Shown in pieces: positions 14,376 to 64,000 of a DNA stretch of 64,000 nt. A program made the position numbers and the translations under genes. The notes below the pieces were generated by a model. That model did not search any database. It saw only the letters and a list, made by a program, of their open reading frames with translations, and was not told the origin of the DNA. Source of the DNA: Heterodontus francisci (lineage: Eukaryota); assembly GCF_036365525.1 (NCBI RefSeq), contig NC_090399.1:14879558-14943557 (forward strand). Reading direction: 5' to 3'. Numbering within the stretch: the stretch's first letter is position 1; the number at the start of each line of letters is the position of its first letter.

Positions 14376-14418
14376 ATGTTCTGGGTTGGATGCGTTTGGT
14401 CATTCCTGTTGTTCTCGA
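14376..14418 (+). CDS. Exon 1 (signal peptide) of NCR3-like gene 1
   Basis: gaACCATG Kozak context, hydrophobic MFWVGCVWSFLLFS, donor A|gtaagt in phase 1, matching the V exon acceptor. Confidence 0.75.
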
Positions 14419-17400
14419 GTAAGTAATTCACATTCATTTTGTACATAATTAAACAGATACACATCCCGCCTCCGCTTCCACACACACATCAACACACACA
14501 CATATGTATATATACCTTCATGTATAGATATGCATATATACAGATACACCTACACACACGAAAATATACATATATATATATAAATCAACTATTGCATTAC
14601 ATACTCTGGAAGACAACGAACAATAACTTGTATTTGTATAGCGCCTTTAACGTATAAAACCTCCCAAGGCGCTTCAAAACCTGTTAACATTAACTGCCTA
14701 AAGAATTGAATTGTGATTCTCGGATAACTGTGATATCGTTAATGGTCCAAACATCGGGGACAGCACATTGAAAGGTTTCCACGAAGCCGCCGCTGCCTGG
14801 GGTGAACCCCATTATAGTTTAGGATTAGACAAGAGTCAAGAGCCACTGATCACAGAATTCAGGCGACTTGAGCGATGCCAATGAAGTGAATTATTTGGGC
14901 TCCTTTCGTAAGTTCGGCTGCCTTCTTCCAGCACATTGGTGTTAGTTTCACACGCTTGGCAGTTTCACCTTGTCTTCGGCCCCATTTATTAGTTCCCCGT
15001 GTGCTCATCAGCCCATGCCAACTGTTTTAGTTATTAATATCAGTCCCTGATGAGTAATGTCAAAGAACAAATATTTAATTGTAGACCGTGGGCATCATCT
15101 GAGCGAACAATAGAAGCTGAATTTTCTAGCTACATGTATTAAGGTTAGTGGCCGAAATATCAGGGGCACCCCCAGGTCCCTCTGTTCCTTTGCCACTAAG
15201 TCATTATCTCTCCCTATCCCTTCTGCCAAAATGCATCACCTCACACCTGTCTGTATTAAATTCCATCTGCCACTTGTCTGCCCATTCTGCTCGCTTATCT
15301 ATGTCCTGTTGCAGGCAGCTCATATCATCCTCACTGCTTGTCATTCCTTCAAATTTGGTGTCATCGGCAAATTTTGAAATTCTGCTCTGTATTCCAGGGT
15401 CCAAGTCATTTATGTATAGAGTATAGGATCCTAGCACTGACCCTTGTGGAACACCACTGTCTACCATCCTCCAGTCTGAAAAACAGCCATTTACCACAAC
15501 CCACTGTTTTCTGTCCTTAAGTCAAATGTTAATCCAATTGCACACTAATCCTCCTATTCCATGAGCCTCAATTTTGTTAGCCAGCCTTTTATGTGGTACT
15601 TTTACCAAATGCTTTCCTAAAAATTATATAGGCAACATCCATCACACTCCCTTCGTCAATCTTCTCAGTTACATCATCAAAAAATTAAATTAGATTCATC
15701 AAGCATGGTCTGCCTTTTACAAATCTGTGCTGCTTATTCTTAAATAACTCAAATTTCTCCTTTTGCTTTTGATATTTCCATTGTTGTTTTCAAAACCTTA
15801 CGCACCACTGGTAAACTCTAGTTAGCCCTTGTTAGTAATCGGATTGAAGCCAGGGAGGAGATGTGTATAAGTGACTAGCCTGGATTATTCCTATCTCTCC
15901 TGGCCACTCTCTTATCCTCCATAATATTTAGCTCATCACAAACTCTGCAGCCCATATCCTATCCGGTACCAAGTTCCCTCATCTATCATAAATACAAGCA
16001 AAATACCGCAGATGCTGGAAATCTGAAATAAAAACAAGAAATGCTGGAAATACTCAGCAGGTCTGGCAGCATCTGTGGAGAGAGAAGCAGAGTTAACGTT
16101 TCAGGTCTGTGACCCTTCTTCAGAACTTGCAGATATTAGAAATGTGAAAGGTTTTAAGCAAGTAAAACAAGGGTGGGGGGAGAGATAACAAAGGAGGAGG
16201 TGTAGATCGGACAAGGTCACAGAGAATAACCGACCACAAGGTCATGGAGCAAAGGCAAGCAATATATTAATGGTGTTTTGAAAGACAAAGCATTAGTATA
16301 GCAGCAAGTACAAACATGAAAAAGCAGTGGGTAGGCAAACTGAACAATCTAAGATAAAATGAAATAAACACCCAAAAAAGAAAAATAACTAAAAATAAAA
16401 GTAAAATGGGGGGCCCGTCATGCGGTGAAATTATTGAACTCAATGTTCAGTCCGGCAGGCTGTAGTGTGCCTCATCGATCACTAACCTGGTTGCTCACTT
16501 ACATTCTTTCCCAGTTTCCCCAATGTCTGAGCCCTAAAATTCTTATTGTTGTGTTTAAAACTATTCATGGCTTCATACATCACTATCTCTGTAGCTTCCT
16601 ACAACCTTACAACACTCTAAGAACTCTGCATTTCCCTGGCTCTGGATGCTGTACGTCCCCCCGCTCCACCCCACTATGCTTGGAATAAACTCTGGAATTC
16701 CTTTCCTAAAACTCTCTGCCTTTCCATCTCTCCCAGCGGCATTAAAAGTCCTCCCCTTTAAGCCCGCTTTTAGTCACCCCCCTCTAGCATCAGTTTATTT
16801 TTAGCTCCAATCCAATTTTGTTTGATTTTGGAAGAGTTATGCGGCCTGTTTGACATTAAAGACACCACGTTACTGCAGATTATTGCTAATTCTATTGTTC
16901 ATATGTAGGAAAGAGCATTTCTTGTTTTTATTTCAGATTTACAGCATCCGCAGTATTTTGCTTTTATTTTAGTAGGGAAGAGCTGCTCGTGTCAATAGTT
17001 TAGGAAAAAGACGTACTCTTCATCTCTGAAAAACGGGGACTGGGGAGGTTAAAGGCAGCGCTTGTTTCTGGGTAAGGCATGACGATAGAAAGTGGATTTA
17101 GCAAAGGACATGTCCTACAGTCAGGAGCTCGGGCTGGCTTTCCAGATGTGGGAATAAATGTAGAAACTATCGTGGAATTCAACAGATGCTGTTACGCAAA
17201 GGACTAGGTCCCAGTGATTCCTTCATCTCTATTTACTTGAGCTTGTATAGTCGCTGAATATTGTTACGGAAGCAAAAGGGAAACACATGGGACAAGTGTG
17301 ATTTCGTTCACGGGCATACAGCAATGTCGCAGGTGAATTTCTCTTATTCGCTGTCACTCTCCAGCGTACCGGATTGTAGTAAGACTCAACTTTAATTAGA

Positions 17401-20400
17401 CCTCACGAATAACTGCATAATTATAGGCAATTTTAAGGATTGAATTGTAAAATGTTCAGTTGCTTTCTATTTCCCTACTTGCGATTTGGTTAACATCCCA
17501 GCCTGCTCCGATTGGAAAAAAAATCGATTATAAAATAGGCCACGGGTAAGGCTTAACATGCAAGGGTGCACTTTTAACTCGCTGTCCCGAGTGTAAAACT
17601 GGAGTCATGTTTGGCTCCCCGTTATAGAAACCGCCCGATTTTCATTAATTTAGATTTTCAACTTATCACCAGTTTACACCCCGGCGCCAACTGAAAACCT
17701 CACCCACTGAACTAATGTAAAAGATAATCGGGAATCAAAGTGTAATATTCATGCTTCTGACGTACTTTAGGCCACAAGGCGGAAATTGGTGAATATTTTA
17801 AGGGAGCTATTTTAATTGTTCTAGAGCAGCCGCCGTTTGAATTATTAAAGACATTACTTATCATTTATATCCATCAATGAAATACCAGTTGCCCATTTTA
17901 TTTGTGGAGCTGTCTGAGGGGGAAAGACAGCAAACTCACATAGACTGGAAATCTGAGTTTTAGGTAGAAAATACTGGATAGACTCAGTAGGTCAGATAAA
18001 TGAAGAGTGTAGGGTTTGTGCGTTCAGGTCTAGGACGCTTCTTCAGAACAGTTATTCAGTATTGACAAATGCTTCCTGACTTGCTGAGCTGTGAATTTAC
18101 TCTTATCCCTAATTCAGGGCAGGACTTTCTGAGGGCAGTTTGCTGGTACCGAAAAAGTAAAAATGTAGAGTGGCGTGACTAACTGATGAGGTTATTTCAT
18201 GTTTGCAGGAGTGACTGCCTCGGGTGTTACAGTCATTCAAGAACCGCGTTCGGTGAGCGTTACCGAGGGTAAAACATTGCATCTATCATGTAGTTTCATT
18301 GTGAACACAGCCCTTTCAGGAAACAACCCCATCGGTTCCCTCATTTGGTACAAAGATTTCAGAACGTCTATAGTTTGTAACAACTGCACGGAATATATCG
18401 GACGAGTTCAGAAAACCGGTTCAAGACCCTTCCGCGAATTTAAAAACGGATCGGTAACAATCACCGGGGTGAAACTGAACGATACAGGAAGGTATTACTG
18501 CGAGGTGGTTCTTAACATCGGTGGAAAGGGCACCGGAGAAGGCACAGAAGTCACAGTAAACCGTAAGTTTGTATTATCTTACATCTTATGCCTTTAGATT
18601 CAGTTCCCCCCTCCAAAAAAAAAAGATATTTTTATTGGAAACTCGGGGTACTGTCACCTTTAAGACATAAATTGAAATTTAACCCGGTTGGGTCTTTTCC
18701 GCAGAATAGGTAAACTGGCGGGTTCGGATGCACCGCTGGTATTACACTCTGTCCGATTTTACTCCATTGAAAATAGCAGAGAGCAGTTTGGGGCCAGGTG
18801 TAAAACCGGCGTTCATACAAAATATTTACAGCACAGAAGGAGGCCATTCGGCCCGTCGTGTCTGTGCCAGCTCTCTGCAAGAACAACTCAGCTAGTCCCA
18901 CTCACCCGCTCTTTCCCCCTAGTCCTGCATTTTCTTTCTCTTTAGGTGCATATCCAATTCACCTTTGAAAGTTCCGACTGCATCTCCCTCCACAACACTC
19001 TCACACACTGCATTCCAGATCCTAACCACATGCTAGTAAAACAGTTTTTCTCCCCCTCTCATGTCATTGTTGGTTCTTGTGCCAATCCCTTTAACTTGGT
19101 GTCCTCTGGTTCACAACCCGTCAGCTAATGGGACCAGTTTCTCTCTATCTACTCATTCTAGATTCCTCATGATTTTTAAACACTTCTATTAAATCTCTCA
19201 ACCTTCTCTTCTCTAAGGAGAACAACGCAGTCATCTCCAATCTATCCATGTAACTGAAGTCCTTCATACCGGAATATATTTTTGTAAATCTTTTTTGCAG
19301 CCTTTCTAAAGCCTTCACATCCTTCCTAAAGTGCAGTGTGCAGAATTGGGCCTGATACTCCAGCTGAGGCCGAGCCTGTATTGTGTAAAGTTTCACCATA
19401 ACTTCCTTGCTTTTGTACCCTATGCCTCTATTTATAAAGTCCAGGATCCTGTTTGCCTTTTTAACTGCTTTCTCAACCTGCCCTGCCATCTTCAATAATT
19501 TGTGCACATATACCCCCAGGTCTCTCTGTTCAAAGAACAAAGAACAAAGAAAATTACAGCACAGGAACAGGCCCTTCGGCCCTCCAAGCCTGCGCCGATC
19601 CAGATCCTCTATCTAAACCTGTCGCCTATTTTCTAAGGGGCTGTATCTCTTTGCTTCCTGCCCATTCATGTATCTGTCTAGATACATCTTAAAAGACGCT
19701 ATCGTGCCCGCGTCTACCACCTCCGCTGGCAACGTGTTCCAGGCACCCACCACCCTCTGCGTAAAGAACTTTCCACGCATATCCCCCCTAAACTTTTCCC
19801 CTCTCACTTTGAACTCGTGACCCCTAGTAATTGAATCCCCCACTCTGGGAAAAAGCTTCTTGCTATCCACCCTGTCTATACCTCTCATGATTTTGTACAC
19901 CTCAATCAGGTCCCCCCTCAACCTCCGTCTTTCTAATGAAAATAATCCTAATCTACTCAATGTCTCTTCATAGCTAGCGCCCTCCATACCAGGCAACATC
20001 CTGGTGAACCTCCTCTGCACCCTCTCCAAAGCATCCACATCCTTTTGGTAATGTGGCGACCAGAACTGCACGCAGTATTCCAAATGTGGCTGAACCAAAG
20101 TCTTATACAACTGTAACATGACCTGCCAACTCTTGTACTCAATACCCCGTCCGATGAAGGAAAGCATGCCGTATGCCTTCTTGACCACTCTATTGACCTG
20201 CATTGCCACCTTCAGGGAACAATGGACCTGAACACCCAAATCTCTCTGTTCATCAATTTTCCCCAGGACTTTTCCACTTACTGTATAGTTCACTCTTGAA
20301 TTGGATCTTCCAAAATGCATCACCTCGCATTTGCCCTGATTCAACTCCATCTGCCATTTCTCTGCCCAACTCTCCAATCTATCTATATTCTGCTGTATTC

Positions 20401-26400: not shown

Positions 26401-29400
26401 TTTGTTCAAAAAAGGGTGTAAAGATAAACCCAACAACTACAGGCAGTTGGTTTAACTTCAGTGATGGGGAAACAACTAGAAACAATAATTCAGGACAAAA
26501 TTAATAGTCACATGGACAAATGCGAGTTAATTAAGGAAAGCCAGCATGGATTTCTTAAGGCAAAATCGTTTTTAACTATCTTGCTGGAGTTTTTTGAAGA
26601 GGTAACAGAGAGAGTTGATGAGGGCGATGCTGTTGATGTGGTGTACATGGACTTTCAAAAGGCATTTGATGCAGTGCCACACAACAGGCTTGTGAGCAAG
26701 GTTATAGCTCATGGAATAAAAGGGACAATAGCAACATGGGTATGGAATTGGCTGAGTGACAAGAAACAGAGAGTAGTGGTTAATGGATGTTTTTTGGGCT
26801 GGAGGAATGTTTGGAGTGGAGTTCCCCAGGGGTCAGTGTCAGGACCTTCTCTTCCTGATATATATTAATGACCTAAACCTTGGTGTACAGGGCACAATTT
26901 CAAAGTTTGCAGATGACACAAAACTTGGAAGCATTGTGAACTGTGAGGAAGATAATGTGGAACTCCAAAAGGACATAGACAAGTTGGTGGAACGGGCAGA
27001 AAGGTGGCAGATGAAGGTCAATGCACAGAAATGTGAAGTGGCTCATTTTGGTAGGAAGAAAATGGAGAGACAATATAGAATAAAGGGTACAATTCTAAAG
27101 GGGGTGCAGGAGCAAAAAAACGTTAACTCTATTTTTCTTCCCACACATGCTGCCTGACCTGCTGAGTACTTCCAGCACTTTCTGTTTTTGTTTCTGATTT
27201 CCAGCATCCACAGTATTTTGCTTTTGTGTTGTTGTAGTAATCCAAGAGTCTGCCCTATGATAGTAAGACTATGAATTCAAATCCCATCACAGCAACCAAG
27301 GAATTTAAATGAATGTGAAAACAGAAAGCTCGTATTGGTATTGGTGACCGTGTAACTATCAGATTGGTACAAAATCCATCTGGTTTGTTCATGTGCTTGA
27401 AGGAAGGAAATTGCTATTCTTTCCTGATCTTCACCTATTGCAATGTACTTGACTCTTTACTGCCCTCTGCAATGGCCGAACAAACAATTCAGTTGTCAAG
27501 AAGGCAGCTCGCTACCATCTTTTCAAGGGCAATTAGGGATGGGCAGTAAATACTGGTCTTGCCAGCGACGTTCTCATCGTGAATTAATTGACAAAAAACC
27601 GAACGCTTCATTGACCTTTAAATCTCAATAATATACACTACATATCCTCCATTTAATAAAATACTCAACTAGAATAAACCAATTTTACAAACAGTTTACC
27701 CACTACAACACTTATAACCAGTTACTGTGCTGAAAAAGATATGGATATACGTCGCCACTGAAGTAAGTGATCGTCAGATGCACATTAGGTTCGACAAATA
27801 CACCCAACGACTACGACGTGAGGATGAAATGCGTGGCAAGTATACAAAATCCATTTCTTAAATAACCGTCATATCAAAAAACAAGTGACAGAAAAATAAA
27901 TTTGAGTTGATGATCCCTTCTTCATTATTGTGTTGTCACATGACTGTGTTTGGCAACACAGGTCACTGCACACCCAGTACTCCAGGAATATAAATTCGTC
28001 TGCTCCGAATAGGAGAGGATTGCTGATTCAGGTCATTTGCGATTCTGCACGTCTGATCTCACGATCCTGTCTGGGCAGACTAGGGAAACAAAGTACTGAA
28101 ACAGACTTTCCTCTGCCGTTGAAACACAGCGTGGGAGCAAGGACACATTTATTTAGTAATGAAACTGGACACCTCCCTCCCATGCTAATATTTGGGAAAT
28201 TCACCGTTTGCTGGGTATGCAGACAGAATTCGTGGTATCTTCAGATGTGTTGCAATAAGTACACTAATAAAAATCCGGGCTCCACCTAACCGAAAAGAAA
28301 TAACTTGTTGAGCTTTTTTCTGAGAAATAGATCGGCATAGAAGATAGTGCAACACTTCACCTCCCTACACCCCCCGCCACGCTCCGTCCCCCACCCAGCT
28401 CCGAACCCTGCTGAAATTTGCAGGTTTTTGAAGTACAAGTTTGTATTCACCTAACCATCGCTTTCTTGTGGTTTTATCTGCTCAAGATCTTGCTGCTGTG
28501 CTGCGCCTTGAGCGTTAAGTCAACTGCGGTTTCTTGACGGAAGGCTACAGCTAGCAATAGCAACCTTCAAAAACTCAAAGGGAGATGGAAACAAAAAACA
28601 ACAACAGCTTTTGATTTATCTCCTCAGGTCATGACGATTCTGAAGTGACATCTCCACCGAATCAAGGGAACATATATCTGCTTATATTTTCAGTGTTGGT
28701 GCTTGTGCTGCTGGGTCTCATCCTTGTTAAAATAATTTCAACCCTGCTCTGCTGTGGCCCTCGAGGTAATTATCCTGAATTCAACTTCGTTACTACATGG
28801 AAAGAGTTACTGCAAGCATATTCCTTTCTTGCAAAGTTTGTATGATTATACACATAAAAGAATAACACGGCTGATGTGTAGCTTACGTTGCAATGTAGCG
28901 ACACTCAAATAGTCAAAATGATTGATGAATAGGAATAATCAGGGTTTTTCATGATTATTTGTATTTACCAAAAGGCACGGAATGACGTGATTTCAATAAT
29001 TTGGAAAACGTGTAATCTTGCATAATTCGAAACCATAAACGCCATGGCTTTTGACATACACATATTTTAATTGGCGCAAAAGCAGTTAATCGGAAGACCC
29101 CCATGTGTGTTAAATGGAACAGTAGCGCAGTATGCACTAGTGTGAGGTGATGCATTTTGGGTGGACTAACAAGGCAAGGGAATTTACAATGGGTGGTGGG
29201 ACACGAGGAAGTACAGAGGCCCAGAGGGACCTTGGTGTTCTTGTTCATAGATCACTGAAGGCAGCAGCACAGGCAGATAAGGTGGTTAGGAAGGCATATG
29301 GGATACTTGCCTTTATTAGCCGAAGCATAGAAAATAAGAGCAGGGAGGTTATGATGGAGCTGTATAAAAGGCTAGTTAGGCCACAGCTGGAGTACTGTGT

Positions 29401-32400: not shown

Positions 32401-35400
32401 ATTTTTTATAAATGACCTGGAAGAGGGTGTAGAAGGGTGGGTTAGTAAATTTGCAGATGACACTAAGGTCGGTGGAGTTGTGGATAGTGCCGAAGGATGT
32501 TGTAGGGTACAGAGGGACATAGATAGGATGCAGAGCTGGGCTGAGAGATGGCAAATGGAGTTTAATGCGGAAAAGTGTGAGGTGATTCACTTTGGAAGGA
32601 GTAACAGGAATGCAGAGTACTGGGCTAATGGGAAGATTCTTGGTAGTGTAGATGAACAGAGAGATCTTGGTGTCCAGGTACATAAATCCCTGAAGGTTGC
32701 TACCCAGGTTAATAGGGCTGTTAAGAAGGCATATGGTGTGTTAGCTTTTATTAGTAGGGGGATCAAGTTTCGGAGCCACGAGGTCATGCTGCAGCTGTAC
32801 AAAACTCTGGTGAGACCGCACCTGGAGTATTGCGTGCAGTTCTGGTCACCGCATTATAGGAAGGATGTGGAAGCTTTGGAAAGGGTGCAGAGGAGATTTA
32901 CTAGGATGTTGCCTGGTATGGAGGGAAGGTCTTACGAGGAAAGGCTGAGGAACTTGAGGTTGTTTTCGTTGGAGAGGAGGAGGAGAGGTGACTTAATAGA
33001 GACATATAAGATAATCAGAGGGTTAGATAGGGTGGATAGTGAGAGTCTTTTTCCTCGGATGGTGATGGCAAACACGAGGGGACATAGCTTTAAGTTGATG
33101 GGTGATAGATATAGGACAGATGTCAGAGGTAGTTTCTTTACTCAGAGAGTAGTAGGGGCGTGGAACGCCCTGCCTGCAGCAGTAGTAGACTCGCCAACTT
33201 TAAGGGCATTTAAGTGGTCATTGGATAGACATATGGATGAAAATGGGATCGTGTAGGTCAGATGGTTTCACAGGTCGGCGCAACATCGAGGGCCGAAGGG
33301 CCTGTACTGCGCTGTAATATTCTAATTCTAATATTAAACAATGATAAAGTACGGATAATATAATTTGGAAAGTATAAGTTTCTGTTAATAAAGAAGCATA
33401 TTTCCATCTCAAAGTTTTCATATTGTATTGACAGTAGTACCATACTATTTTGGATTGTTGTTTTTGTTCTGGTTTTTAAAAAATCTAATCGACTTAAAAT
33501 ATTTTATAGATAAAAGAACTGGAACCCAAGTTGTAAGTAAGGTATGTAATATATTGTAACTAAGACATTTAATTTGATTTGCAGTGTGATTCATTGCTGT
33601 TGTCGGTGACCCTTTTTGAGAAAGCTACATAAAGAGATAAGATCCACCTACAGGAAACTTATTATCGTGCAAAAGATTGGAACGTGTCCTGCCAAAATGC
33701 ATCACCTCACACTTCTCAGGATTAAATTCCATTTGCCACTGCTCTGCCCATCTCACCAGCCCATCTATATCATCCTGTAATCTAAGGCTTTCCTCCTTAC
33801 TATTTACAACTCCACCAATTTTCATGTCATCTGCGAACTTACTAATCAGACCTCCTATATTCACGTCTAAATCATTATTGTACACTACAAACAGCAAAGG
33901 TCCCAGCCCCGATCCCTGTGATACACCACTGGTCACAGGCTTCCAATCGCAAAAGCACCCCTCAAAAATCACACTCTACCTCCTGCCACTAAGCCAATTT
34001 TGCATCTAATTTGCCAAATTGCCCTGGATCCCATGGGCTCTTACCTTCTTAACCAATCTCCCATGCGAGACCTTATCAAAAGCCATACTGAAGTCCGTGT
34101 AGACTACATCAACTGCTTTACCCTCATTTACACATCTCGTCACTTCCTTGAAAGATTCAATCAAGTTTGTTGGACATGATCTCCCCCTGATAAAGCCATG
34201 CTGACTATTCTTAATTAATCCCTGCCTCTCCAATTGGAGATTAATCTTGTCCCTCAGAATTTTTTCCAATAGTTTCCCTACCACTGATGTTAGACTCACC
34301 GACTTGTAATTACCTGGTTTATCCCTGCTACCCTTCTACCACATTCACTATCTTCCAGTCTTCTGGAACCTTTCCTGTGGCCAGAGAGGATTTGCAAATT
34401 TGTGTTAGAGCCACTGCAATCTCTTCCCTTGCCTCACATAACAGCCTGGAATACATCTCATCTAGGCCTGGGGATTTATCCACTTTTAAGCCTGCTAAAA
34501 TCGCTAATACCTCCTCCCTTCCAATGCTAATTTGTTCGAGTATATCACAATCCTCCTCCCTGATCACTACACCTACATCGTCCTTCTCCATAGTGAACAC
34601 AGATGAAAAGTAATCATTTAAAACCTCACCTATGTCCTCCGGCTCAACACAGATTGCCTCTTTGGTCCCTACTCTTTCCCTGGTTATCCTCTTGCCCTTA
34701 ATATACTTATAAAATGCCTTAGGATTTTCCTTTATCTTGCCTACCAGTGTTTTTTCATGTCCTCTCTTCGCTCTCCTAATTACTTTTTTAAGTACCCCCC
34801 TATACTTTCTATACTCCTCTGGGGCCTCTGCTGTTTTCAGCACTCCGAATCTGCTGTAAGCCTCCTTTTTTTTCCTGATCCAATCCTCTATATCCCTTGG
34901 CTTCCAGGGTTCCCTGGACTTGTTGGTCCTACCCCTCACCTTTACGGGAACATGTTGGCTCTGAACTCTCACTTTTTCCTTTCTGAATGACTCCCACTGG
35001 TCTGATGTAGACTTTCCTACAAGTAGCTGCTCCCAGTCCACTTTGGCCAGATCCTGTTTTATCATATTGAAATCGGCCTTCCCCCAATTCAGTACCTTTA
35101 TTTCCGGTCCATCTTTGTCCTTTTACAGAACTACCTTAAATCTTACAGAGTTATGGTCACTATCCCTGAAATGCTCCCCCACTGACACTTCTACCACTTG
35201 TCCAGCCTCATTCCCTAGGATTACATCCAGTAACGCCCCTTTAAGCCTTTTGCACTAAAGCTATCCCAGTTAATATCGGGGAAGTTGAAATCCCCTACTA
35301 TTATTACCCTATTATTTTGACACCTCTCTGAGATTTGCCTACATATCTGCTCCTTTATCTCTCCTTGACTATTTGGAGGCCTGTAGTACACTCCCAGTCA

Positions 35401-35768
35401 AGTGATTGCCCCCTTTTGCATAGTTACTGCACCGAGATGATCAGCTATCCTGTCATTTCAAATCTTGTAACAAATGATCTGATTAATTTAAGGACGGAGA
35501 CAGGTCGGAAACTGTTCCTCATGTCGAGCTGAATATCCCCCGATCAAACCCTCCTCATCGGATTGTGTGCGAGGCAGTGAGGTCCGGCGGACAGAATCAA
35601 AACTCAACAGCAAGTGGCTCGGTATCACTTCCAGCAAGTAATGAAGAATCGGTTGTGTCCACGTCATTGTGGCAACCGGATTATAATGAGGAATCGGTTC
35701 GGTTCGAGCCCGTGCAGGCTCCCAGAAGGATGGAAGGGCAGACCGTGTATGCGGCTGTAAGAGTGTAG
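14376..35768 (+). CDS. NCR3: NKp30/NCR3-like type I Ig-superfamily receptor, 5 coding exons join(14376..14418,18209..18562,28628..28765,33510..33541,35493..35768), 280 aa
   Basis: All introns are GT-AG, and the phases chain 1-1-1-0 into an 843-nt stop-free ORF: MFWVGCVWSFLLFSR-VTASGVTVIQEPRSV...YYCEVVLNIGGKGTGEGTEVTVNR-HDDSEVTSPPNQGNIYLLIFSVLVLVLLGLILVKIISTLLCCGPRD-KRTGTQVVSK-DGDRSE...EGQTVYAAVRV*. The symbol denotes family, not proven orthology. Confidence 0.8.
14455..14585. repeat. (CA)n/(TA)n microsatellite
   Basis: Visible alternating dinucleotide runs just inside intron 1. Confidence 0.8.
15165..15810 (-). mobile_element. Old CR1 RT fragment
   Basis: SGVPQGSVLG...FADDTK...CEVMHFGR. Confidence 0.8.
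15990..16478 (-). mobile_element. Penelope-like element 3' end (family A) with hammerhead motif
   Basis: Minus strand encodes GTLQPAGLNIEFNNF* (GIY-YIG C-terminal TLxPxGLN), followed by a terminal repeat also seen at 16915-16970, 17940-18050, 24345-24480, 27120-27225, 37131-37250. Confidence 0.75.
16091..16127 (-). ncRNA. Minimal type I hammerhead ribozyme motif
   Basis: Minus strand AGTT-CTGAAGA-A-GGGTC-ACA-GACCT-GAAA-CG-TT-AACT: intact core, stems I and II, palindromic helix III (AACGTT). Confidence 0.6.
18209..18562 (+). CDS. NCR3: Exon 2: V-set Ig domain with germline J-like G strand (NKp30-like)
   Basis: Acceptor ttgcag|, donor C|gtaagt, phase 1-1. B-strand Cys (LHLSC), IGSLIWYKD (cf. 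human NKp30 IGSVTWFRD), EYIGRV, DTGRYYC, GKGTGEGTEVTV (cf. GVGTGNGTRLVV). Confidence 0.93.
19531..20714 (-). mobile_element. Young 5'-truncated CR1
   Basis: Open 352-aa RT C-terminal ORF, (tgttctt)n tail as in the element at 1-1770. Confidence 0.93.
21772..23391 (+). mobile_element. 5'-truncated CR1 with duplicated 3' tail
   Basis: RT fragments, 3' UTR present twice (23075-23235, 23237-23391), (ctatgact) tail. Confidence 0.88.
23775..27118 (+). mobile_element. Degenerate CR1 (ORF1 esterase + ORF2) with nested PLE fragment and SINE
   Basis: IGDS/GTNDIG-type ORF1 motifs, MGDFNYP, YMDFQKAFD, FADDTK. Confidence 0.85.
25913..26233 (+). mobile_element. tRNA-derived V-SINE (HE1-like)
   Basis: A box tggcgcagtgg, B box ggttcgattc, V-domain gcggagtttgcaagttctccc...gggtgctccggtttcc, CR1-like tail, (taaa)n. 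Confidence 0.88.
28628..28765 (+). CDS. Exon 3: stalk + transmembrane segment
   Basis: Pyrimidine-rich acceptor atctcctcag|, donor G|gtaatt, 138 nt phase 1-1, encodes IYLLIFSVLVLVLLGLILVKIISTLLCC. Confidence 0.85.
29139..29945 (+). mobile_element. CR1 3' fragment
   Basis: MHFGWTNK...RPQLEYCVQFW, CR1 3' UTR. Confidence 0.88.
30632..33332 (+). mobile_element. Young 5'-truncated CR1 ORF2 (EN+RT), frameshifts at homopolymers
   Basis: 600-aa and 299-aa overlapping ORFs, (ttctaa)n tail, atatta on both flanks. Confidence 0.95.
33510..33541 (+). CDS. Exon 4: 32-nt juxtamembrane micro-exon (D)KRTGTQVVSK
   Basis: attttatag| acceptor and AAG|gtatgt donor. It converts phase 1 to phase 0 as needed to join exon 3 to exon 5, and supplies basic stop-transfer residues. 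Confidence 0.6.
33684..35420 (-). mobile_element. CR1 internal fragment
   Basis: ORF2 linker and RT pieces (KSPGLDEMY, FADD). Confidence 0.88.
35493..35768 (+). CDS. Exon 5: cytoplasmic tail ending in ITSM-type TVYAAV
   Basis: tttaag| acceptor, 91 codons open to TAG, non-repeat sequence, C-terminal TxYxxV, AATAAA ~125 nt downstream. Confidence 0.75.
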   Translation, partial: DGDRSETVPHVELNIPRSNPPHRIVCEAVRSGGQNQNSTASGSVSLPASNEESVVSTSLWQPDYNEESVRFEPVQAPRRMEGQTVYAAVRV

Positions 35769-43200: not shown

Positions 43201-43485
43201 ACACATTTTTGTAGTACTAACCTTGCCACCTAATACGATAGGTTTTGAGGGTTTTTTTTTCAGAAAATAACTTTTCCCTTATTTTTTTAAGCTATTTACA
43301 GCCACTAACAGTTGTTACTTATCCAACCAATCACCTTGTAGCTTTCCTGTGATGTCCCTGTGGACTTTTAAAAATTCTTTTTCCAAAACTCTAGCACGCC
43401 TGGACTGCTCTCACACAGGCCCACTCCTGGAAGATAAGTGATCTGGGCTGCCATCCACGGACTCTATTGCTCCTCTCTCGGTGGA
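40240..43485 (-). mobile_element. CR1 5' half: 5' UTR, ORF1 (Cys-rich N-terminus + esterase), ORF2 endonuclease
   Basis: LPGARVKDV/HIGTNDIG ORF1, ITETWL...GDFNFP endonuclease. Confidence 0.88.
42251..42595 (-). mobile_element. V-SINE (HE1-like) inserted in CR1 ORF1
   Basis: Same family; cctat on both flanks. Confidence 0.85.
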
Positions 43486-45089
43486 GGAGGAGATCTGTAA
43501 GGAACTCACAGTCGTCATGTCGAAGGCAGTGGACACAGGAACCTTCTTCTTTTCTTTCTTTCTTTTGGGCCTCCTTATCTCGAGAGACAATGGATACGCG
43601 CCTGGAGGTGGTCAGTGGTTTGTGAAGCAGCGCCTGGAGTGGCTATAAAGGCCAATTCTGGAGTGACAGGCTCTTCCACAGGTGCTGCAGAGAAATTTGT
43701 TTGTTGGGGCTGTTGCACAGTTGGCTCTCCCCTTGCGCCTCTGTCTTTTTTCCTGCCAACTACTAAGTCTCTTCGACTCGCCACAATTTAGCCCTGTCTT
43801 TATGGCTGCCCGCCAGCTCTGGCGAATGCTGGCAACTGACTCCCACGACTTGTGATCAATGTCACACGATTTCATGTCGCGTTTGCAGACGTCTTTATAA
43901 CGGAGACATGGACGGCCGGTGGGTCTGATACCAGTGGCGAGCTCGCTGTACAATGTGTCTTTGGGGATCCTGCCATCTTCCATGCGGCTCACATGGCCAA
44001 GCCATCTCAAGCGCCGCTGACTCAGTAGTGTGTATAAGCTGGGGATGTTGGCCGCTTCAAGGACTTCTGTGTTGGAGATATAGTCCTGCCACCTGATGCC
44101 AAGTATTCTCCGAAGGCAGCGAAGATGGAATGAATTGAGACGTCGCTCTTGGCTGGCATACGTTGTCCAGGCCTCGCTGCCGTAGAGCAAGGTACTGAGG
44201 ACACAGGCCTGATACACTCGGACTTTTGTGTTCCAGGAACCAATGCATTACAAACAAGCCAATGTTGCGTCCATATTCACAGACACAGACATTGACACCT
44301 ATAGACCCATTGATCATTCGTTTATTGCATGTAAGGTAATGAAAGCGATTATCAGGGGCAAAAGCGAGGATCGTTTGTACAATGACCAACTATTCAACAG
44401 GAAGTAACATTGATTCAGAAGGGGAAAAATCATATCTGACCAACCTCTTCAAACCAGCTGGGGTTTTTCCAGGTAAATGTCTTTACCTGGACTCCCAAAC
44501 AACCATTGATAAAAATCCGGTGCTAAAAGTAGTTAAATAAAATCAAAGCTGGAGTTTCAGGATACGTCCTGGGAATGAATAGGAAAAATGTGGTAGATTT
44601 TAAACTTGAAGATCGGAAATAAAACGGGCCTTGTGGATTGGCCGTCTGCGATGGACCAAATGACCTACTGCTGTTCTGTGTCATTTCATGTTTCTGTAAA
44701 ATAAGTGAGGAAATCATTGTTGATTTTCCAGGTACCAATCAAATCACTTAAGTGATCACTTACAAACTGCATTCCACATTCTGTCCTTGGAAATTCTATG
44801 TGCTCACATTCCTCACTTGCTCATTCAAACATTCATTCGTTTTCATTGTTAGTCCCTGGATATTTGCCAATATATTTATTGATTGACTATGAAGGTGGAA
44901 AACTTTGTTACCGTGTTTAAATGGTTTCTTTTTATCTCTTTTTAGTAGTTCTGTTTGATATTTTCCTTGAGTACAAAATAACGACCTTCTCTGGGATCTA
45001 ATTTTCCTTTCAGATTTCTGCCTTATTGAATGACCCGTCTCGGTATTTATCATTCTAGTTTCAAAGTAAACAATCACAGGAACAAAAAG
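43485..45089 (+). repeat. Local duplication, copy A (paralogous to 58483-59828 + 63328-63346)
   Basis: ~0.9 kb of colinear, highly similar non-coding sequence once the private insertions are removed. Confidence 0.9.
43544..44233 (-). mobile_element. Young RTE 3' fragment
   Basis: Open 201-aa C-terminal ORF; TSD caggaacc (43536-43543, 44234-44241). Confidence 0.92.
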
Positions 45090-45235
45090 ACAGACCGCTA
45101 GATCGTTAGTATGACAGACAGATATATCGATAGATAGACAGACAGTCAGACAGATATATGAATAGAGAGTCAGACGGATATATGAATAGACAGACAGGCC
45201 TATAGACAGACAGATAAATAGAATAGATAGATAAG
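45090..45235. repeat. (GAYA)n degenerate microsatellite
   Basis: gata/gaca tetramers. Confidence 0.75.
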
Positions 45236-46047: not shown

Positions 46048-46250
46048 AGCAAAAACAACCGGATAACAGTGGAAGTTCTCTGCTTTGGCAGCTGATGGTC
46101 GTAGGAGTGAAACTTGCAGTGTTTGTTGTGATCATCATTCTAACAATTTCCCTCGTACATTTCTGCGGATCTGGAGGTTCTCCTGTGACAATCACTGCAA
46201 AGAGAGAGGGAATTGAGCGAAGCGGCAAGTGTGCGATGGAAAACGGTTAA
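46048..46250 (+). CDS. Orphan stalk/TM/short-tail exon of an activating-type NCR3-like receptor (possibly a pseudogene remnant or an alternative last exon)
   Basis: Acceptor tgtttcattctccatag| in phase 1. Encodes QKQPDNSGSSLLWQLMVVGVKLAVFVVIIILTISLVHFCGSGGSPVTITAKREGIERSGKCAMENG* with a Lys in the TM. No V exon was found between 35768 and 46048. Confidence 0.65.
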
Positions 46251-46466: not shown

Positions 46467-49400
46467 CTGGGTCATTGTGGTTTTGATCTCTGGGTTATTG
46501 GGGGTTTTGATCTCTGGGTCATTGTGGTTTTGATCTCTGGGTTATTGGGGTTTTTGATCTCTGGGTTATTGGGGTTTTTGATCACTGGGTTATTGGGGTT
46601 TTTGATCACTGGGTTATTGGGGTTTTTGATCACTGGGTTATTGAGGGTTTTGATCTCCAGGTTATTGGGGGTTTTGATCTCTGGGTTATTGGGGTTTTTG
46701 ATCACTGGGTTATTGAGGGTTTTGATCTCCAGGTTATTGGGGTTTTTGATCACTGGGTTATTGGGGTTTTTGATCTCTGGGTTATTGGGGTTTTTGATCT
46801 CTGGGTTATTGGGGTTTTTGATCTCTGGGTTATTGGGGTTTTTGATCTCTGGGTTATTGGGGTTTTTGATCACTGGGTTATTGGGGTTTTTGATCTCTGG
46901 GTTATTGGGGTTTTTGAACTCTGGGTTATTGGGGTTTTTGATCACTGGGTTATTGGGGTTTTTGATCTCTGGGTTATTGGGGGTTTTGATCTCTGGGTTA
47001 TTGGGGGTTTTGATCTCCAGGTTATTGGGGGTTTTGATCTCTGGGTTATTGGGGTTTTTGATCTCTGGGTTATTGGGGGTTTTGATCTCTGGGTTATTGG
47101 GGGTTTTGATCTCTGGGTTATTGGGGGTTTTGGATCTCTGGGTTATTGGGGTTTTTGATCTCTGGGTTATTGGGGGTTTTGGATCTCTGGGTTATTGGTG
47201 TTTTTGATCTCTGGGTTATTGTGGTTTTGATCTCTGGGTTATTGGGGGTTTTGGATCTCTGGGTTATTGGGGTTTTTGATCTCTGGGTTATTGGGGGTTT
47301 TGGATCTCTGGGTTATTGGGGTTTTTGATCTCTGGGTTATTGGGGGTTTTGGATCTCTGGGTTATTGGGGTTTTTGATCACTGGGTTATTGGGGGTTTTG
47401 ATCTCTGGGTTATTGGGGGTTTTGATCTCCAGGTTATTGGGGTTTTTGATCACTGGGTTATTGGGGTTTTTGAACTCCGGGTTATTGGGGTTTTTGATCT
47501 CTGGGTTATTGGGGTTTTTGATCTCTGGGTTATTGGGGTTTTTGATCTCTGGGTTATTGGGGGTTTTGATCTCTGGGTTATTGGGGGTTTTGATCTCCAG
47601 GTTATTGGGGTTTTTGATCACTGGGTTATTGGGGTTTTTGAACTCCGGGTTATTGGGGGTTTTGATCTCTGGGTTATTGAGGGTTTTGATCTCTGGGTTA
47701 TTGGGGTTATTGATCACTGGGTTATTAGGGTTTTTGATCACTGGGTTATTGGGGTTTTTGATCTCTGGGTTATTGGGGTTTTTGATTTCTGGGTTATTGG
47801 GGGTTTTGAACTCTGGGTTATTGGGGTTTTTGATCACTGGGTTATTGGGGTTTTTGAACTCTGGGTTTTTGGGGGTTTTGATCTCTGGGTTATTGGGGTT
47901 TTTGATCACTGGGTTATTGGGGGTTTTGAACTCTGGGTTTTTGGGGGTTTTGATCTCTGGGTTATTGGGGTTTTTGATCACTGGGTTATTGGGGGTTTTG
48001 ATCACTGGGTTATTGTGGTTTTGATCTCTGGATTATTGGGGTTATTGATCTCTGGGTTATTGGGGTTTTTGATCACTGGGTTATTGGGGGTTTTGATCTC
48101 TGGGTTATTGGGGTTTTTGATCACTGGGTTATTGGGGTTTTTGATCACTGGGTTATTGGGGGTTTTTTGATCACTGGGTTATTGGGGGGTTTGATCTCTG
48201 GGTTATTGGGGATTTTGATCCCTGGGTTATTGGGGGTTTTGATCACTGGTGTTTTAGGGGTTTTGATCACTGGGTTATTGGGGGGTTTGATCTCTGGGTT
48301 ATTGGGGTTTTTGATCTCTGGGTTATTGGGGGTTTTGATCCCTGGGTTATTGGGGGTTTTGATCACTGGTGTTTTAGGGGTTTTGATCACTGGGTTATTG
48401 GGGGGTTTGATCTCTGGGTTATTGGGGTTTTTGATCTCTGGGTTATTGGGGATTTTGATCCCTGGGTTATTGGGGGTTTTGATCACTGGTGTTTTAGGGG
48501 TTTTGATCACTGGGTTATTGGGGGGTTTGATCTCTGGGTTATTGGGGTTTTTGATCTCTGGGTTATTGGGGATTTTGATCCCTGGGTTATTGGGGGTTTT
48601 GATCACTGGTGTTTTAGGGGTTTTGATCACTGGGTTATTGGGGGGTTTGATCTCTGGGTTATTGGGGTTTTTGATCTCTGGATTATTGGGGGTTTTGATC
48701 ACTGGGTTATTGTGGTTTTGATCACTGGGTTATTGGGGATTTTGATCTCTGGGTTATTGGGGGTTTTGATCTCTGGGATATTGTGGTTTTGATCACTGGG
48801 TTATTGGGGTTTTTGATCTCTGGGTTATTGGGGATTTTGATCTCTGGGTTATTGGGGGTTTTGATCTCTGGGATATTGTGGTTTTGATCACTGGGTTATT
48901 GTGGTTTTGATCTCTGGGTTATTGGGGATTTTGATCTCTGGGTTATTGGGGGTTTTGATCTCTGGGATATTGTGGTTTTGATCACTGGGTTATTGGGGTT
49001 TTTGATCTCTGGGTTATTGGGGATTTTGATCTCTGGGTTATTGGGGGTTTTGATCTCTGGCTTATTGGGGGTTTTGATCACTGGGTTATTGTGGTTTTGA
49101 TCTCTGGCTTATTGGGGTTATTGATCTCTGGGTTATTGGGGGTTTTGATCCCTGGGATATTGTGGTTTTGATCACTGGGTTATTGGGGTTTTTGATCTCT
49201 GGGTTATTGGGGGTTTTGATCACTGGGTTATTGTGGTTTTGATCTCTGGCTTATTGGGGATTTTGATCCCTGGCTTATTGGGGGTTTTGATCACTGGGTT
49301 ATTGTGGTTTTGATCTCTGGCTTATTGGGGTTATTGATCTCTGGGTTATTGGGGGTTTTGATCCCTGGGATATTGTGGTTTTGATCACTGGGTTATTGGG

Positions 49401-51008
49401 GTTTTTGATCTCTGGGTTATTGGGGGTTTTGATCACTGGGTTATTGGGGGTTTTGATCCCTGGGATATTGTGGTTTTGATCACTGGGTTATTGGGGTTTT
49501 TGATCTCTGGGTTATTGGGGGTTTTGATCTCTGGGTTATTGGGGGTTTTGATCACTGGGTTATTGTGGTTTTGATCTCTGGCTTATTGGGGATTTTGATC
49601 CCTGGTTTATTGGGGGTTTTGATCTGTGGGTTATTGGGAATTTTGATGCCTGGGTTATTGGGTTTTTGATCTCTGGGTGATTGGAGGTTTTTGATCACTC
49701 TGTTATTGTGGTTTTGCTCTCTGGGTTATTGGGGGTTTGATCCCTGAGTTATTGTTGTTTTGATCCCTGGGTTATTGTGGTTTTGATCCCTGGGTTATTG
49801 TGGTTTTGATCTCTGGGTTATTGGGGTTTTGATCCCTGGGCTATTGGGGATTTTGATCCCTGGGTTCTAGGGGGTTTTTATCCCTAGGTTATTGTGGTTT
49901 TGATCCCTGGGTTATTTGGTTTTTGATCTCTGGGTTATTGGGGGTTTTGATCACTGGGTTATTGTGGTTTTGATCACTGGGTTATTGTGGTTTTGATCTC
50001 TGGCTTATTGGGGTTATTGATCTCTGGGTTATTGGGGGTTTTGATCCCTGGGATATTGTGGTTTTGATCACTGGGTTATTGTGGTTTTGATCTCTGGCTT
50101 ATTGGGGATTTTGATCACTGGGTTATTGGGGGTTTTGATCCCTGGGATATTGTGGTTTTGATCACTGGGTTATTGGGGTTTTTGATCTCTGGGTTATTGG
50201 GGGTTTTGATCTCTGGGTTATTGGGGGTTTTGATGCCTGGGTTATTGGGTTTTTGATCTCTGGGTGATTGGAGGTTTTTGATCACTCTGTTATTGTGGTT
50301 TTGCTCTCTGGGTTATTGGGGGTTTGATCCCTGAGTTATTGTTGTTTTGATCCCTGGGTTATTGTGGTTTTGATCCCTGGGTTATTGTAGTTTTGATCTC
50401 TGGGTTATTGGGGTTTTGATCCCTGGGCTATTGGGGATTTTGATCCCTGGGTTCTAGGGGGTTTTGATCCCTGGGTTATTGTGGTTTTGATCCCTGGGTT
50501 ATTTGGTTTTTGATCTCTGGGTTATTGGGGGTTTTGATCCCTGGGTTATTGGGGGTTTTGATCCCTGGGTTATTGGGGTTTTGATCCCTGGGCTATTGGG
50601 GATTTTGATCCCTGGGTTCTCGGGGGTTTTGATCCCTGGGTTATTGTGGTTTTGATCCCTGGGTTATTTGGTTTTTGATCTCTGGGTTATTGGGGGTTTT
50701 GATCCCTGGGCTATTGGGGATTTTGATCCCTGGGTTCTCGGGGGTTTTGATCCCTGGGTTATTGTGGTTTTGATCCCTGGGTTATTTGGTTTTTGATCTC
50801 TGGGTTATTGGGGGTTTTGATCCCTGGGTTATTGGGGGTTTTGATCCCTGGGTTATTGGGGGTTTTGATCCCTGGGTTATTGGGGGTTTTGATCACTGGG
50901 TTATTGGGGGTTTTGTCCCCTGAGTTATTGGAGGTTTTGATCCCTGGGTTATTAGGTTTTTGATCTCTGGGTTATTGGGGGTTTCGATCACTGGCTTATT
51001 GGGGTTAA
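46467..51008. repeat. 24-bp tandem satellite, ~190 units, consensus GGGTTATTGGGG(G/T)TTTTGATC(T/A/C)CT
   Basis: Directly visible; produces the LISGLLGF/PNNPEIKN pseudo-ORFs. Confidence 0.97.
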
Positions 51009-51347
51009 TGGGAGGTATGACCACCAGACACGTGGCATGCAGGCCCACTGGCATGTGGTTCCACCTTGGTGCCAAGAAACAGACACCCAGCTATGGTTAA
51101 ACAGTCATGTCTGGGGACAGTAGGAAGCTTTGGGAGTAAACTCCAGCAGAAAATCAAGAGTGGAGTCCCAGTATGAAGTTACCGGTTTCTTATCTAGCAG
51201 TTGTGGCAATTTCTGCAGCAGAGCTGGTACCAAACACTACGTTTTTTTCCCTTTTCGTTTGGACAATACTAGCAAAGCCTAGAGGTGGGGTTCTGATGCT
51301 TGAGCAATACGGGGTCTCCGTACTATTTGCCCAGGCCTGCACTCTGG

Positions 51348-58303: not shown

Positions 58304-58482
58304 CTTAGTTCCCATGGCTATTTTAATGTAGTTTTATTTCCTTTCTGCGTTACAATAGGGAACGACATCTCAAACATCCAAACAGCTTCAATATAATTGC
58401 AATAGTAGAATAAATGGGTTAGAAGCAAGCAAATGGGCAGAGGGAAAGATGTTGTTTAGACATGAGTGCTGAGGGAGATGAA

Positions 58483-59828: not shown

Positions 59829-62800
59829 TTCTTCTTTGGCCTCCTTGTCTCGAGAGACAATGGGTAAGCGCCTAGGGGTGGTCAGTGGTTTGTGGAGCAG
59901 TGCCTGGAGTGGCTATAAAGGCCAATTCTAGAGTGACAGACTCTTCCACAGGTGCTGCAAATAAAATTGGTTGTCGGGGCTGTTACACAGTTGGCTGTCC
60001 CCTTGCGCTTCTGTCTTTTTCCCTGCCAACTGCTAAGTCTCTTCAACTCGCCACACTTTAGCCCCGCCTTTATGGCTGTCCGCCAGCTCTGGCGATCACT
60101 GGCAACTGACTCCCACAATTTGTGGTCAATGTCACAGGACGTCATGTTGTGTTTGCAGACGTCTTTAAAGTGGAGACATGGACGGCCGGTGGGTCTGAAA
60201 CCAGTGACGAGCTCGCTGTACAATGCATCCTTGGGGGTCCTGCCATCTTCCATGCGGCTCACATGGCCAAGCCATCTCAAGCGCCGCTGGCTAAGTAGGG
60301 TGTATACCCTGGGGATGTTGGCTATCTTGAGAACTTTTGCATTGGAGATACGGTCCTGCCACCTGATGCCAAGGATTCTCCGGAGGCAGCGAAGAGGGAA
60401 TGAGTTGAGACATCGCTCTTGGCTGACGTACGTTGTCCAGGCCTCGCAGCCGTAGAGCAAGGTACTGAGGACACAGGCTTGATACACTCGGACTTTTGTG
60501 TTCCGTGTCAGTGTGCCATTTTCCCACACCCTCGTGACCAGTCTGGACACAGCAGCGGACGCCTTTCCCATGCATTTGTTGATTTCTGCATCGAGAGACA
60601 TGTTACTGGTGATAGTTGAGCCTAGGTAGGTGAACTCTTGAACCACTTCCAGAGCGTGGTCGCCGATATTCATGGATGGAGCATTTCTGACGTCTTGTCC
60701 CATGATGTTCGTTTTCTTAAGGCTGATGGTTAGGCCAAATTTGTTGCAAGCAGCCACAATCCTGTCAGTGAGTCTCTGCAGACACTTTTCTGTGTGGGAT
60801 GTTAATGCAGCATCATCAGCAAAGAGGAGTTCCCTGATGAGGACCTTCTGTACTTTGATCTTTGCTCTAAGATGGGTCATCAGATCTGGTATGGAGGAAA
60901 ATTCCTTCTTCTGAAGACTTGAACGCATGTGAGAGCAGCAGGGAGAAGAAGATCCCAAACAGTGTAGGTGCGAGAACACATCCCTGTTTCACATCACTCA
61001 GGATAGGAAAGGGGCCTAATGAGGCACCGCTATGCTGAATTGTGCCTTTTATATTGTCATGGAATGAGGTGATGATACTTAGCAGCTTTAGTGGGCATCC
61101 AATCTTTGCTAGCAGTCTGAAGAGATCACTTCTGCTGACGAGGTCAAAGACTTTGGTGAAATCTATAAAAGCAATGTAGAGGGGCATCTGTTGTTCATGG
61201 CATTTCTCCTGTCGCTGGCAAAGGGAGAACAGCATGTCAATGGTGGATCTCTCTGCTTGAACGCCACACTGTGCCACAGGGTAGACATGCTCAGCCAGCT
61301 TTTGGAGTCTGTTTAAAATAACTTGAGCGAAGACTTTCCCCACTATGCTGAGCAGGGAGATTCCACGGTAGTTGTTGCAGTCACCCTTGTTCTTATAGAG
61401 GGTGATGATATTGGCATCGCGCATGTCCTGTGGTACTGCTCCCTTGTCCCAGCACAGGCAAAGCAGTTCATGGAGTGCTGAGAGTATAGCAGGCTTGGCA
61501 CTCTTGATTATTTCCAGGGTAATGCCATCCTTTCCAGAGGCTTTTCCACTGGCTAGAGAATAAATGGCATCACTGAGTTTCAATTTTGTTGGCTGTTTGT
61601 CCAGCTCGTCCATGACTGGCAGAGACTGGGCTGCATTGAGGGCGGTATCAGTGACAACATTTTCCCTGTAGTACAGTTCTAGGTAGTGCTGCACCAGCGG
61701 TCCATTTGCTTGCGTTGGTCAGTCATCATGTCTCCTGATTTAGACTTGAGGGGGGTGATCTTCTTGATGGTTGTCCAAAAGCTCTCTTAATGACAGGTTC
61801 CAGCTCTTCAAAGTGAGATTGAAACTAGTCTGCATTCTGTTTCTCACATTTGCTAAAGGTGGTCATTGCTGAGTCATGGATGGCATCTCTGATGTGGGCC
61901 CACTTGGTCTCTGCATCCCCTGTAGGAGTGTTTTGAAGGGCTTTTTCAAGTGAAATTTGAAACCTATGTAACAGATGTGGATAAGAAATTCTGTTAGTCT
62001 TGATGTGTGGGCGGCCCTCCTGCTTGGAGTGATGCAGCTTCTTTGGTTTGAGTCTAACCTTGCTGCACACCAGTGGTCGGGTGGTCAGTGTCGCAGTCTG
62101 CACTGTGGAAACTGCGTGTGATTTGGACACTGTTTATAGAGGTTCGCCTTGTGACGATGAGGTCCAGCTGCTGCCAACGACGTGATCTTGGGTGCCTCCA
62201 AGAAACCTGGTGACAGGGTTTAGTATGAAAGAACGAGTTGGTGATGCAGAGGTTGTGATAGGTACACAACTCAAGCAGTCTCTGTCCATTCTCATTCATC
62301 CTTCCAATGCCATAGCGCCCAAGGCAGGAGGGCCATGAGTCATGGTCGGCCCCAACCCTGGCATTAAAGTCTCCCAGCAGGAGCAATGTTCGGTATTAGG
62401 AATGCTAATAATGATATTATGGAGTTCCTTATCAAACTGGTCTTTAACTTCATGTGGGGAGCAGAGTGTTGGAGCATAGATGCTGAGTAGGTGTACTGGA
62501 CCAGAGACGGTGAGCAGTCGGATGGACAGTATGCATTCCGAGCCATTTGAAGGTGGCTCTATCATGCTGAGCAAAGAGTTTCTGATGGCGAAGCCCACTC
62601 CATGCTGTCTTGGTTCTTCAGGATCCCTACCCTGCCAGAAGAAGGTGTAGTCTTGCTCTCTTAGAGATCCGCTCACAGGGAGGCGAGTCTCCTGAACTGC
62701 TGCAATTTCGACATTGAGTCTACTGAGCTCGTTGTTAATAATGGCAGTCTTCCGAGAGTCGTTGAATTGTGTAAGGTCTTCCGACAGGCCAGAACACATA

Positions 62801-63327
62801 GTTCTGACGTTCCAGCTTGCAAAACGAAGCGCTTCTTTCCTTTTTTGTCGTTTGGTTCAGCGTTACAGTCCACTTGTCGGGCAATGACCCTGAGCTCCAA
62901 GCACCCTGAAGCAGATGGACTGTGGTGGGACAGAAGCTTTCTGACTGGGGGCTGCCCAGTTTGAGGAGGGTGGTAGCTGTCCAGTGAGATGCGATGACCT
63001 CTCCTACCAACAAAGGCAACCTGTGGTGCCCAATCTTTACACCAGTTGAGCTGGACATATAACCTGTAACTGCTGCCTTCGGTGTTGTTTTGGTCGCTGT
63101 GAGGCAACTATGGACTGACCTCTCCATGGTGCATGCCTGGGTGGATGTATAGAGGTTGTGAGTTGCCCACGCGTCAAACCCCCCCCCCCCCCCCCCTCTC
63201 GGCCTTCGTAGTGGGGTCCAAAGGAGTGCAGAGCACAACGAATGGCACCGGTATGGCTGCAGGAACTGCTAGAAACATGCCAAAGGTGACACATTAAGGG
63301 TTCTGCTCTGGATTTTCTGTAGGATTT
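59829..63327 (-). mobile_element. Near-full-length RTE-BovB-like LINE (5' UTR, EN, RT, zinc knuckle), disrupted
   Basis: AAVQETRL, LLGDFNARVG, LFADD, CSTCGRVCHSRIGLYSH; acaat on both flanks. Confidence 0.93.
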
Positions 63328-63871
63328 ACAATACAGGAACAAAAAGGATTAATGTTTGTATACGGGAGGAGTCTCAGCTGGCTTGTAGCGATGATATTTG
63401 TAGGTCTACCGACGTTCTTTAGAATTGGGAACGTGAGTGTGTGTTAATGGATGGAGATGATTGCGCACCTAAGAATCTCCTGAGGGCTCACAGTAGATAA
63501 GGAAATGAAGTCGTGAAGGACAGTGAAGAGTGTTATCATGTAAGGCTTGTACTTTTATTTCTCTATGATATATTACAATTAGAATGAAGGTTTTTTGAAA
63601 ATAATGTTTGTGATTCCCAGATCACTGTGAAGCAATGAAACCCGCTGCCCTGCTGTGGACCTGGATGCTACTCTTTAGTAAGCTATTTGTTTTCTTACTA
63701 CACTTCACTGTTGTGTAGTCTGAGAAAGTTAAGTAACTGGTGGTCTTGAAGTATATGGGGAAATGGAAACAAATTTGGCATAATGATGTTATCCCAGCTG
63801 TTGTAGTAGCCCATACAAGGAAGAATGATGTCACTTTGAACATCTAATTGCCACGAGCATTTGTCTTACAG

Positions 63872-64000
63872 CGACAACTGCTAGGAAGATCAAAGTGTTT
63901 CAAACACCACCTTCCATTGAGGCGAGCGAGGGAGAGACTGTCCATCTTCTCTGCACCTACAGCACATCTCACGGTCAACGGATCGGGGCTTTCTCTTGGT
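63872..64000 (+). CDS. NCR3: 5' part of a second NCR3-like V exon (truncated by window end)
   Basis: Acceptor ttgtcttacag| phase 1. Encodes TTARKIKVFQTPPSIEASEGETVHLLCTYSTSHGQRIGAFSW (A' EG motif, B-strand Cys, IGxxxW). Confidence 0.85.

Follow-up and report, generated by a model that had tools for sequence, protein, structure and literature searches.

An intact NKp30-like gene and a probable headless duplicate of its neighbour in the horn shark Heterodontus francisci

The question raised by this locus is whether a lysine-bearing transmembrane (TM) exon, lying between two NCR3-like genes of the horn shark Heterodontus francisci, is a working third member of a paired receptor family. Paired families such as KIR, LILR, SIRP-alpha/beta, teleost NITR and Xenopus CEACAM/FcR-like are tandem arrays of Ig-superfamily genes whose signalling modules have opposite effects, and they also show birth-and-death relics. 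The initial annotation of the 64,000-nucleotide stretch analysed here (the window) described a long-tailed gene, a short-tailed exon with a TM lysine and a divergent second V exon in tandem on one strand, and all three were confirmed, on the plus strand. The window holds an intact gene (gene 1), the first two exons of another (gene 2) and, between them, what is probably a headless duplicate of gene 2; in this assembly the lysine exon most likely does not serve as a functioning third member. The family was represented by 21 proteins named by look-up and 11 further matches; 150 relatives were matched, most of them outside the named set. The window is rich in repeats, 39,853 of its 64,000 bases having a second copy within it.

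Gene 1 lies within 14376-35768 on the plus strand and has five exons, all four introns being GT-AG:

14376..14418, plus strand: gene 1 leader exon, 14 codons and 1 base, phase 1 (P0001 residues 1-14), GTAAGT donor
18209..18562, plus strand: gene 1 pre-joined VJ exon, NKp30-like by PDB sequence and fold matches, RSS-free surroundings
28628..28765, plus strand: gene 1 stalk and uncharged transmembrane exon (P0001 134-178)
33510..33541, plus strand: gene 1 small cytoplasmic exon (P0001 179-189)
35493..35768, plus strand: gene 1 tail exon with terminal TVYAAV (ITSM consensus TxYxxV), AATAAA at 35892

The spliced frame is identical at 280 of 280 residues to P0001, which is RefSeq XP_067865303.1 ('NCR3-like', Heterodontus francisci) and the sole protein retrieved with the V exon at 18209. 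Gene 1 is an intact, already annotated NKp30-like gene. CR1-type LINE reverse-transcriptase open frames were also seen at 1-1674 (558 aa) and at 30601-33253 (604 and 301 aa), the latter within the third intron of gene 1.

The best PDB sequence match of the gene 1 V domain (V1) was human NKp30 (3noi, phmmer E 1.3e-8). The family profile gave NKp30 an E of 2e-28, the best among single-V chains, with only two multi-V diabodies scoring higher, and Foldseek ranks 1-4 for the V1 model (pLDDT 89.6) were all NKp30, with TM 0.76-0.81. The PD-1/CD28 family has the same V-TM-ITSM layout as gene 1, and a PDCD1 cluster came second by language-model features, but NKp30 ranked first by sequence, profile and fold, as had been proposed, and the GxGT strand of V1 is complete and of J type. 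The V and J parts are contained in one exon through the end of the G strand (GxGT), followed by a GTAAGT donor, and no RSS was found near it. A single weak RSS-like match in the window, at 63629 on the minus strand in the gene 2 5' UTR (perfect heptamer, 24-bp spacer, nonamer with 2 mismatches), is probably due to chance. The suggestion of a germline VJ-type gene was therefore borne out for gene 1, whereas the V domain of gene 2 (V2) is cut by the window. In the parts of PMC10751288 and PMC12227049 consulted, NKp30 is a non-rearranging VJ gene of the MHC; no MHC gene was found in the 64-kb window.

Human NKp30, in the excerpted text of PMC6514059, lies in MHC class III, has a TM arginine and a short tail, pairs with CD3-zeta/FcR-gamma and has tail isoforms. 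It resembles gene 1 in its single V, stalk and TM, and V1 matches it best in both sequence and fold. However, it is one gene with a TM arginine and a short tail, whereas gene 1 has a membrane segment without charge and a long tail bearing TVYAAV three residues from the C-terminus. The lysine of the gene 1 TM exon stands where the hydrophobic run ends on the inner side, likewise in the ortholog-like P0007. The motif fits the ITSM consensus TxYxxV (PMC11599192, in part), and judging from these motifs gene 1 is likely an inhibitory or switch receptor. Its V domain would bind a cell-surface ligand, by family analogy perhaps a B7-type Ig protein, and the distal TxYxxV tyrosine would be phosphorylated and then recruit SHP-1/2 or a SAP-type adaptor. 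Relatives bear at most three tail tyrosine motifs, of which gene 1 retains the last, with His and Ser at the positions of P0007 TIYAKL and VVYSAP. Inhibition by gene 1 may be weak because only one of the three family tail tyrosines is left. It is even conceivable, although we consider it rather unlikely, that with a lone TxYxxV near the C-terminus gene 1 acts as a switch or weak co-receptor and as no true inhibitor; the two replaced tyrosines (His, Ser) speak for this reading of its function, while the remaining motif is kept in P0007, P0016, P0035 and P0158 and the TM is uncharged.

Gene 2 begins near the end of the window:

59829..63328, minus strand: RTE-type LINE in the gene 2 upstream flank, ACAAT on either side
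63635..63677, plus strand: gene 2 leader exon, 43 nt, 11/14 identical to the sawshark P0005/P0151 leader
63872..64000, plus strand: gene 2 V exon, truncated at the window end, sawshark and nurse-shark V matches

V2 matched Pfam V-set (E 2.4e-5 over 42 aa). It is identical at 33 of 39 positions (85%) to the second V domain of sawshark P0151 and 62% identical to nurse-shark P0052; with V1 it shares about 33%. Strict receptor pairs have highly similar ectodomains, and on this point V1 and V2 fail as a strict pair. Closer pair candidates than V1/V2 are Hemitrygon P0032/P0035 (64% V identity, apparently one contig) and Rhinoraja P0027/P0158 (LOC144602683/684), with V identity at 32 of 38 residues (84%) over the available part. 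In one gene model, sawshark P0151 unites a gene-2-like leader, a V2-like V (85%) and a last exon 56% like the lysine exon, and nurse-shark P0052 likewise joins a gene-2-like V to a lysine-bearing membrane exon. As both relatives end in such an exon, gene 2, whose TM exon lies beyond the window, probably belongs to the activating type. The gene 2 protein was absent from the 11 matches listed (best 8000 candidates scored). In gene 2-type receptors, which have no tail motif, the membrane lysine would pair with the aspartate of an ITAM adaptor, for which DAP12, FcR-gamma and CD3-zeta are candidates; human NKp30 differs in using an arginine.

Sawshark P0151/P0005, named 'pIgR-like', carry two V domains in tandem ahead of the Lys-TM exon and are either a genuine two-domain NCR3 or a fusion of two neighbouring genes. 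The LINE at 59829-63328, which we take from its ORFs to be of the RTE type, is apparently full-length and ends about 300 bp upstream of the gene 2 start codon; its insertion could affect the gene 2 promoter. Judging from a donor at 63433 and an acceptor at 63621, gene 2 may have a 5' UTR exon that starts at the RTE end. An apparent Arg-TM exon at 63323-63432 was dropped: it begins inside the RTE end and runs on into ordinary flank, has no Pfam match, and matched relatives only at E about 1.

Between the two genes lie the following features:

43482..45089, plus strand: duplicate of the gene 2 upstream flank, with an RTE fragment at ~43546-44245, aligned to 58479-59828 and 63334-63347
45088..45197, plus strand: GACA/GATA microsatellite at the inferred deletion junction
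46048..46250, plus strand: Lys-TM short-tail exon, open frame, phase 1, own V absent from the window
46467..51004, no strand given: satellite with a 24-bp unit in about 190 copies; its start lies about 40 bp past the divergence point of the transcribed 3' UTR

By its sequence, the exon at 46048-46250 is a true NCR3-family exon. Its acceptor is in the 99th percentile among the AG sites of the window, it is identical at 30 of 54 residues (56%) to the last exon of sawshark P0151, and its G-V-K-L type motif is also found in six named proteins from five shark/ray species and in one unnamed protein. The combination of a positive TM residue, lysine and not arginine, with a short tail occurs in this orphan exon and six named relatives and not in gene 1. 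No V remnant was found at 35769-63634 or 1-14375 by motif, by tblastn with 32 relatives or by profile with stops read through, and the family profile, run in six frames with stops read through, recovered V1, TM1, the tail, Lys-TM and V2 and nothing else in the window. A hydrophobic ORF at 52450-52713 matched none of the 32 relatives and was discarded.

Within the window the stretch at 43482-45089 recurs just once, upstream of gene 2; the two copies align with 838 matches, 57 mismatches and 40 gap columns (93.6% identity; 6.4% diverged). Each copy bears transposon insertions of its own. When the gene 2 RTE is removed, the match extends 14 bases beyond the insertion site and then ends, about 290 bp before the start-codon position, at the GACA/GATA microsatellite, after which come the last intron and then the lysine exon. 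Because a V is absent and a copy of the gene 2 flank lies directly upstream, the lysine exon is best read as a headless gene 2 duplicate. An activating gene would have been duplicated in tandem, and a deletion in one copy would then have removed its promoter, leader and V and joined the upstream flank to the last intron across the microsatellite; the locus would thus represent birth and death within a two-sign receptor family. Alternatively, the lysine exon might be the last one of an activating gene that has its V upstream of the window and an intron of >46 kb, within which gene 1 would be nested in the same orientation. This would account for an intact exon with its V partner absent from the window; however, it leaves the gene 2 flank before the lysine exon intron and the break in the 3' UTR unexplained, and nesting on the same strand over a polyadenylated gene is an unusual arrangement, so that we give it hardly any weight.

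The satellite at 46467-51004 is strongly G/T-skewed on the plus strand, has only 5 CpG and may be a sign of rearrangement or of an assembly join. RTE 3' fragments at 43554-43991 and 51345-51782, inverted and flanking the relic and the satellite, are 99% identical over 438 bp, far closer than other copies (about 90%), which suggests a recent insertion or conversion.

Ten sequencing runs contain the lysine exon stretch, none of them recorded as RNA; that X1 and X3 are RNA is a guess. Four of the ten were compared over 45300-46460, X5 and X8 being uninformative on the splice. In X1 and X3, which come from one sample, two paths lead into 46048. One is unspliced (depth 42 and 14), and the other comes from different sequence (depth 197 and 51), starting exactly at the acceptor and in phase, in junction contigs that hold 30 letters of the exon, one below the bridge threshold. 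The joined V end reads GPGTMLTVK, resembles GPGTRLTVK of P0052, differs from GEGTEVTVN of V1 and is absent from the 64-kb window. We infer that V2, cut by the window end, also ends in GPGTMLTVK. That contigs join the same exon to a V absent from the window is a further reason for regarding the lysine exon as a headless duplicate.

The junction bears also on the idea that the lysine exon is an alternative last exon of gene 1, so that V1 could be made with an inhibitory tail or with an activating one. The phases agree, the end of V1 and the start of the lysine exon both being in phase 1, and the exon has a strong acceptor and an open frame and lies on the same strand 27.5 kb downstream; human NKp30 tail isoforms, moreover, have opposite effects (PMC6514059, in part). 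This splicing was at first the favoured reading and became very unlikely with the X1/X3 junction and the flank duplication. The sole spliced partner observed at 46048 is another V, and no junction of V1 to 46048 was listed in the contigs over 45300-46460, although contigs drop rare forms. The splice would also have to bypass three exons and the AATAAA at 35892, the RefSeq cluster of gene 1 has one member, and no short isoform of near length was found (74-237 aa, 31 candidates, 0 scored).

Homology of the lysine exon region to the transcribed copy spans 45359-46425. In X1, X3 and X8, which represent two organisms, the 3' UTR departs from the window at 46425, just before the 4.5-kb satellite, and its continuation is absent from the window sequence. 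The coding part of the lysine exon is intact, with 0/203 differences from X1/X3 (from organism A, which may not be the window's species), and this speaks against the headless-duplicate reading. In the intron, X1/X3 differ from the window at 15 of 689 positions (2.2%), significantly below the 6.4% of the flanks (Fisher p 5e-5); judged by the flanks, a transcribed copy more distant from the relic would have been expected. The transcribed copy could have arisen as a third, more recent duplicate or by conversion, or it could be an intact allele of the same locus. In the last case, other individuals would have an intact locus, the window would carry either a deletion allele, as in KIR-like gene-content polymorphism, or an assembly collapse beside the 4.5-kb satellite, and the transcribed Lys-TM receptor would stem from the lysine exon locus itself. 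The absence of coding differences, the single difference in 231 positions of the proximal intron, an intron closer than the flanks and the simple repeats adjoining both breakpoints agree with this. Nevertheless, it requires two separate lesions, a 5' loss and the 3' UTR break; the distal 458 bp of the intron has 14 substitutions and four indels, many for an allele; and the two organisms, of which A may be another species, share five states in X1/X3 and X8 that the window lacks (4 substitutions and 1 insertion). We therefore consider an intact locus, in either form, unlikely.

The NCR3-like family is expanded, which had also been predicted: there are seven NCR3-like horn-shark genes (XP_067865303, 360-369, 377-378, 380-381, 388-391, 393-396, 595), their records apparently of one 74,466,956-bp contig, which does not imply proximity to the window. 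The seven named horn-shark proteins all have tail tyrosine motifs and all are without the lysine motif. The expectation of both activating and inhibitory members held for the two motif types across sharks and rays, while the lysine exon found here is without a V. When members were classified by TM charge and tyrosine motifs, as had been suggested, 33 hand-picked V domains fell, by motif alone, into 8 lysine, 18 uncharged with a tyrosine tail and 7 ungrouped. In the tree of these domains, lysine and tyrosine-tail types interleave, and either type forms one group in 0/200 bootstrap trees. The type label needs 5 changes, at least 4 of them forced by supported branches, a count that is possibly inflated by gene-model chimeras and includes P0075, with its weakly hydrophobic segment. 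The shark NCR3-family proteins P0141, P0101 and P0155 are annotated as SIRP-alpha/beta-like, and cluster names are unreliable. We suggest only tentatively that shark and ray NKp30 may be a KIR-like paired family whose V domains repeatedly switched between a lysine TM and an ITIM/ITSM tail, with activators born and lost; on that tentative view, the window might catch one activator loss, possibly still polymorphic.

A shark NCR3 family of eight subtypes, linked to the MHC, was reportedly described by Kinlein et al. 2021 (PMID 33742259). The part of PMC12227049 consulted lists eight nurse-shark NCR3 accessions (MT914154-914161). That family shares with the window genes a non-rearranging VJ domain and several divergent members, whereas the horn-shark genomic layout and the headless duplicate differ. 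The gene family itself is already known, and novelty of the paired layout cannot be claimed: nurse-shark QTT61904.1, a Lys-TM NCR3 like gene 2, is in GenBank, and Kinlein 2021 may class charged and ITIM types. The suggestion that the paired architecture is undescribed cannot be upheld for this reason. No description of shark NCR3 signalling types was found in the literature covered, which did not include Kinlein 2021 and Flajnik 2012; it comprised parts of PMC5112662 and PMC2413239 on paired receptor families and, as background, parts of PMC12272517, PMC10450919, PMC3964593 and PMC4536121.

For annotation, reads are needed before the exon at 46048 is taken for a gene or for an isoform of XP_067865303.1. 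NKp30 is an exception among NK receptors, which rarely have orthologues across vertebrates. If its shark relatives have both signs, the oldest jawed vertebrates would have a candidate, with named genes, for inhibitory self-recognition. If the tentative view of a KIR-like paired family is true, cartilaginous fish would have in an NCR3 cluster their main NK/T recognition system based on a balance of signals, and human NKp30 would be the single survivor of a paired family.
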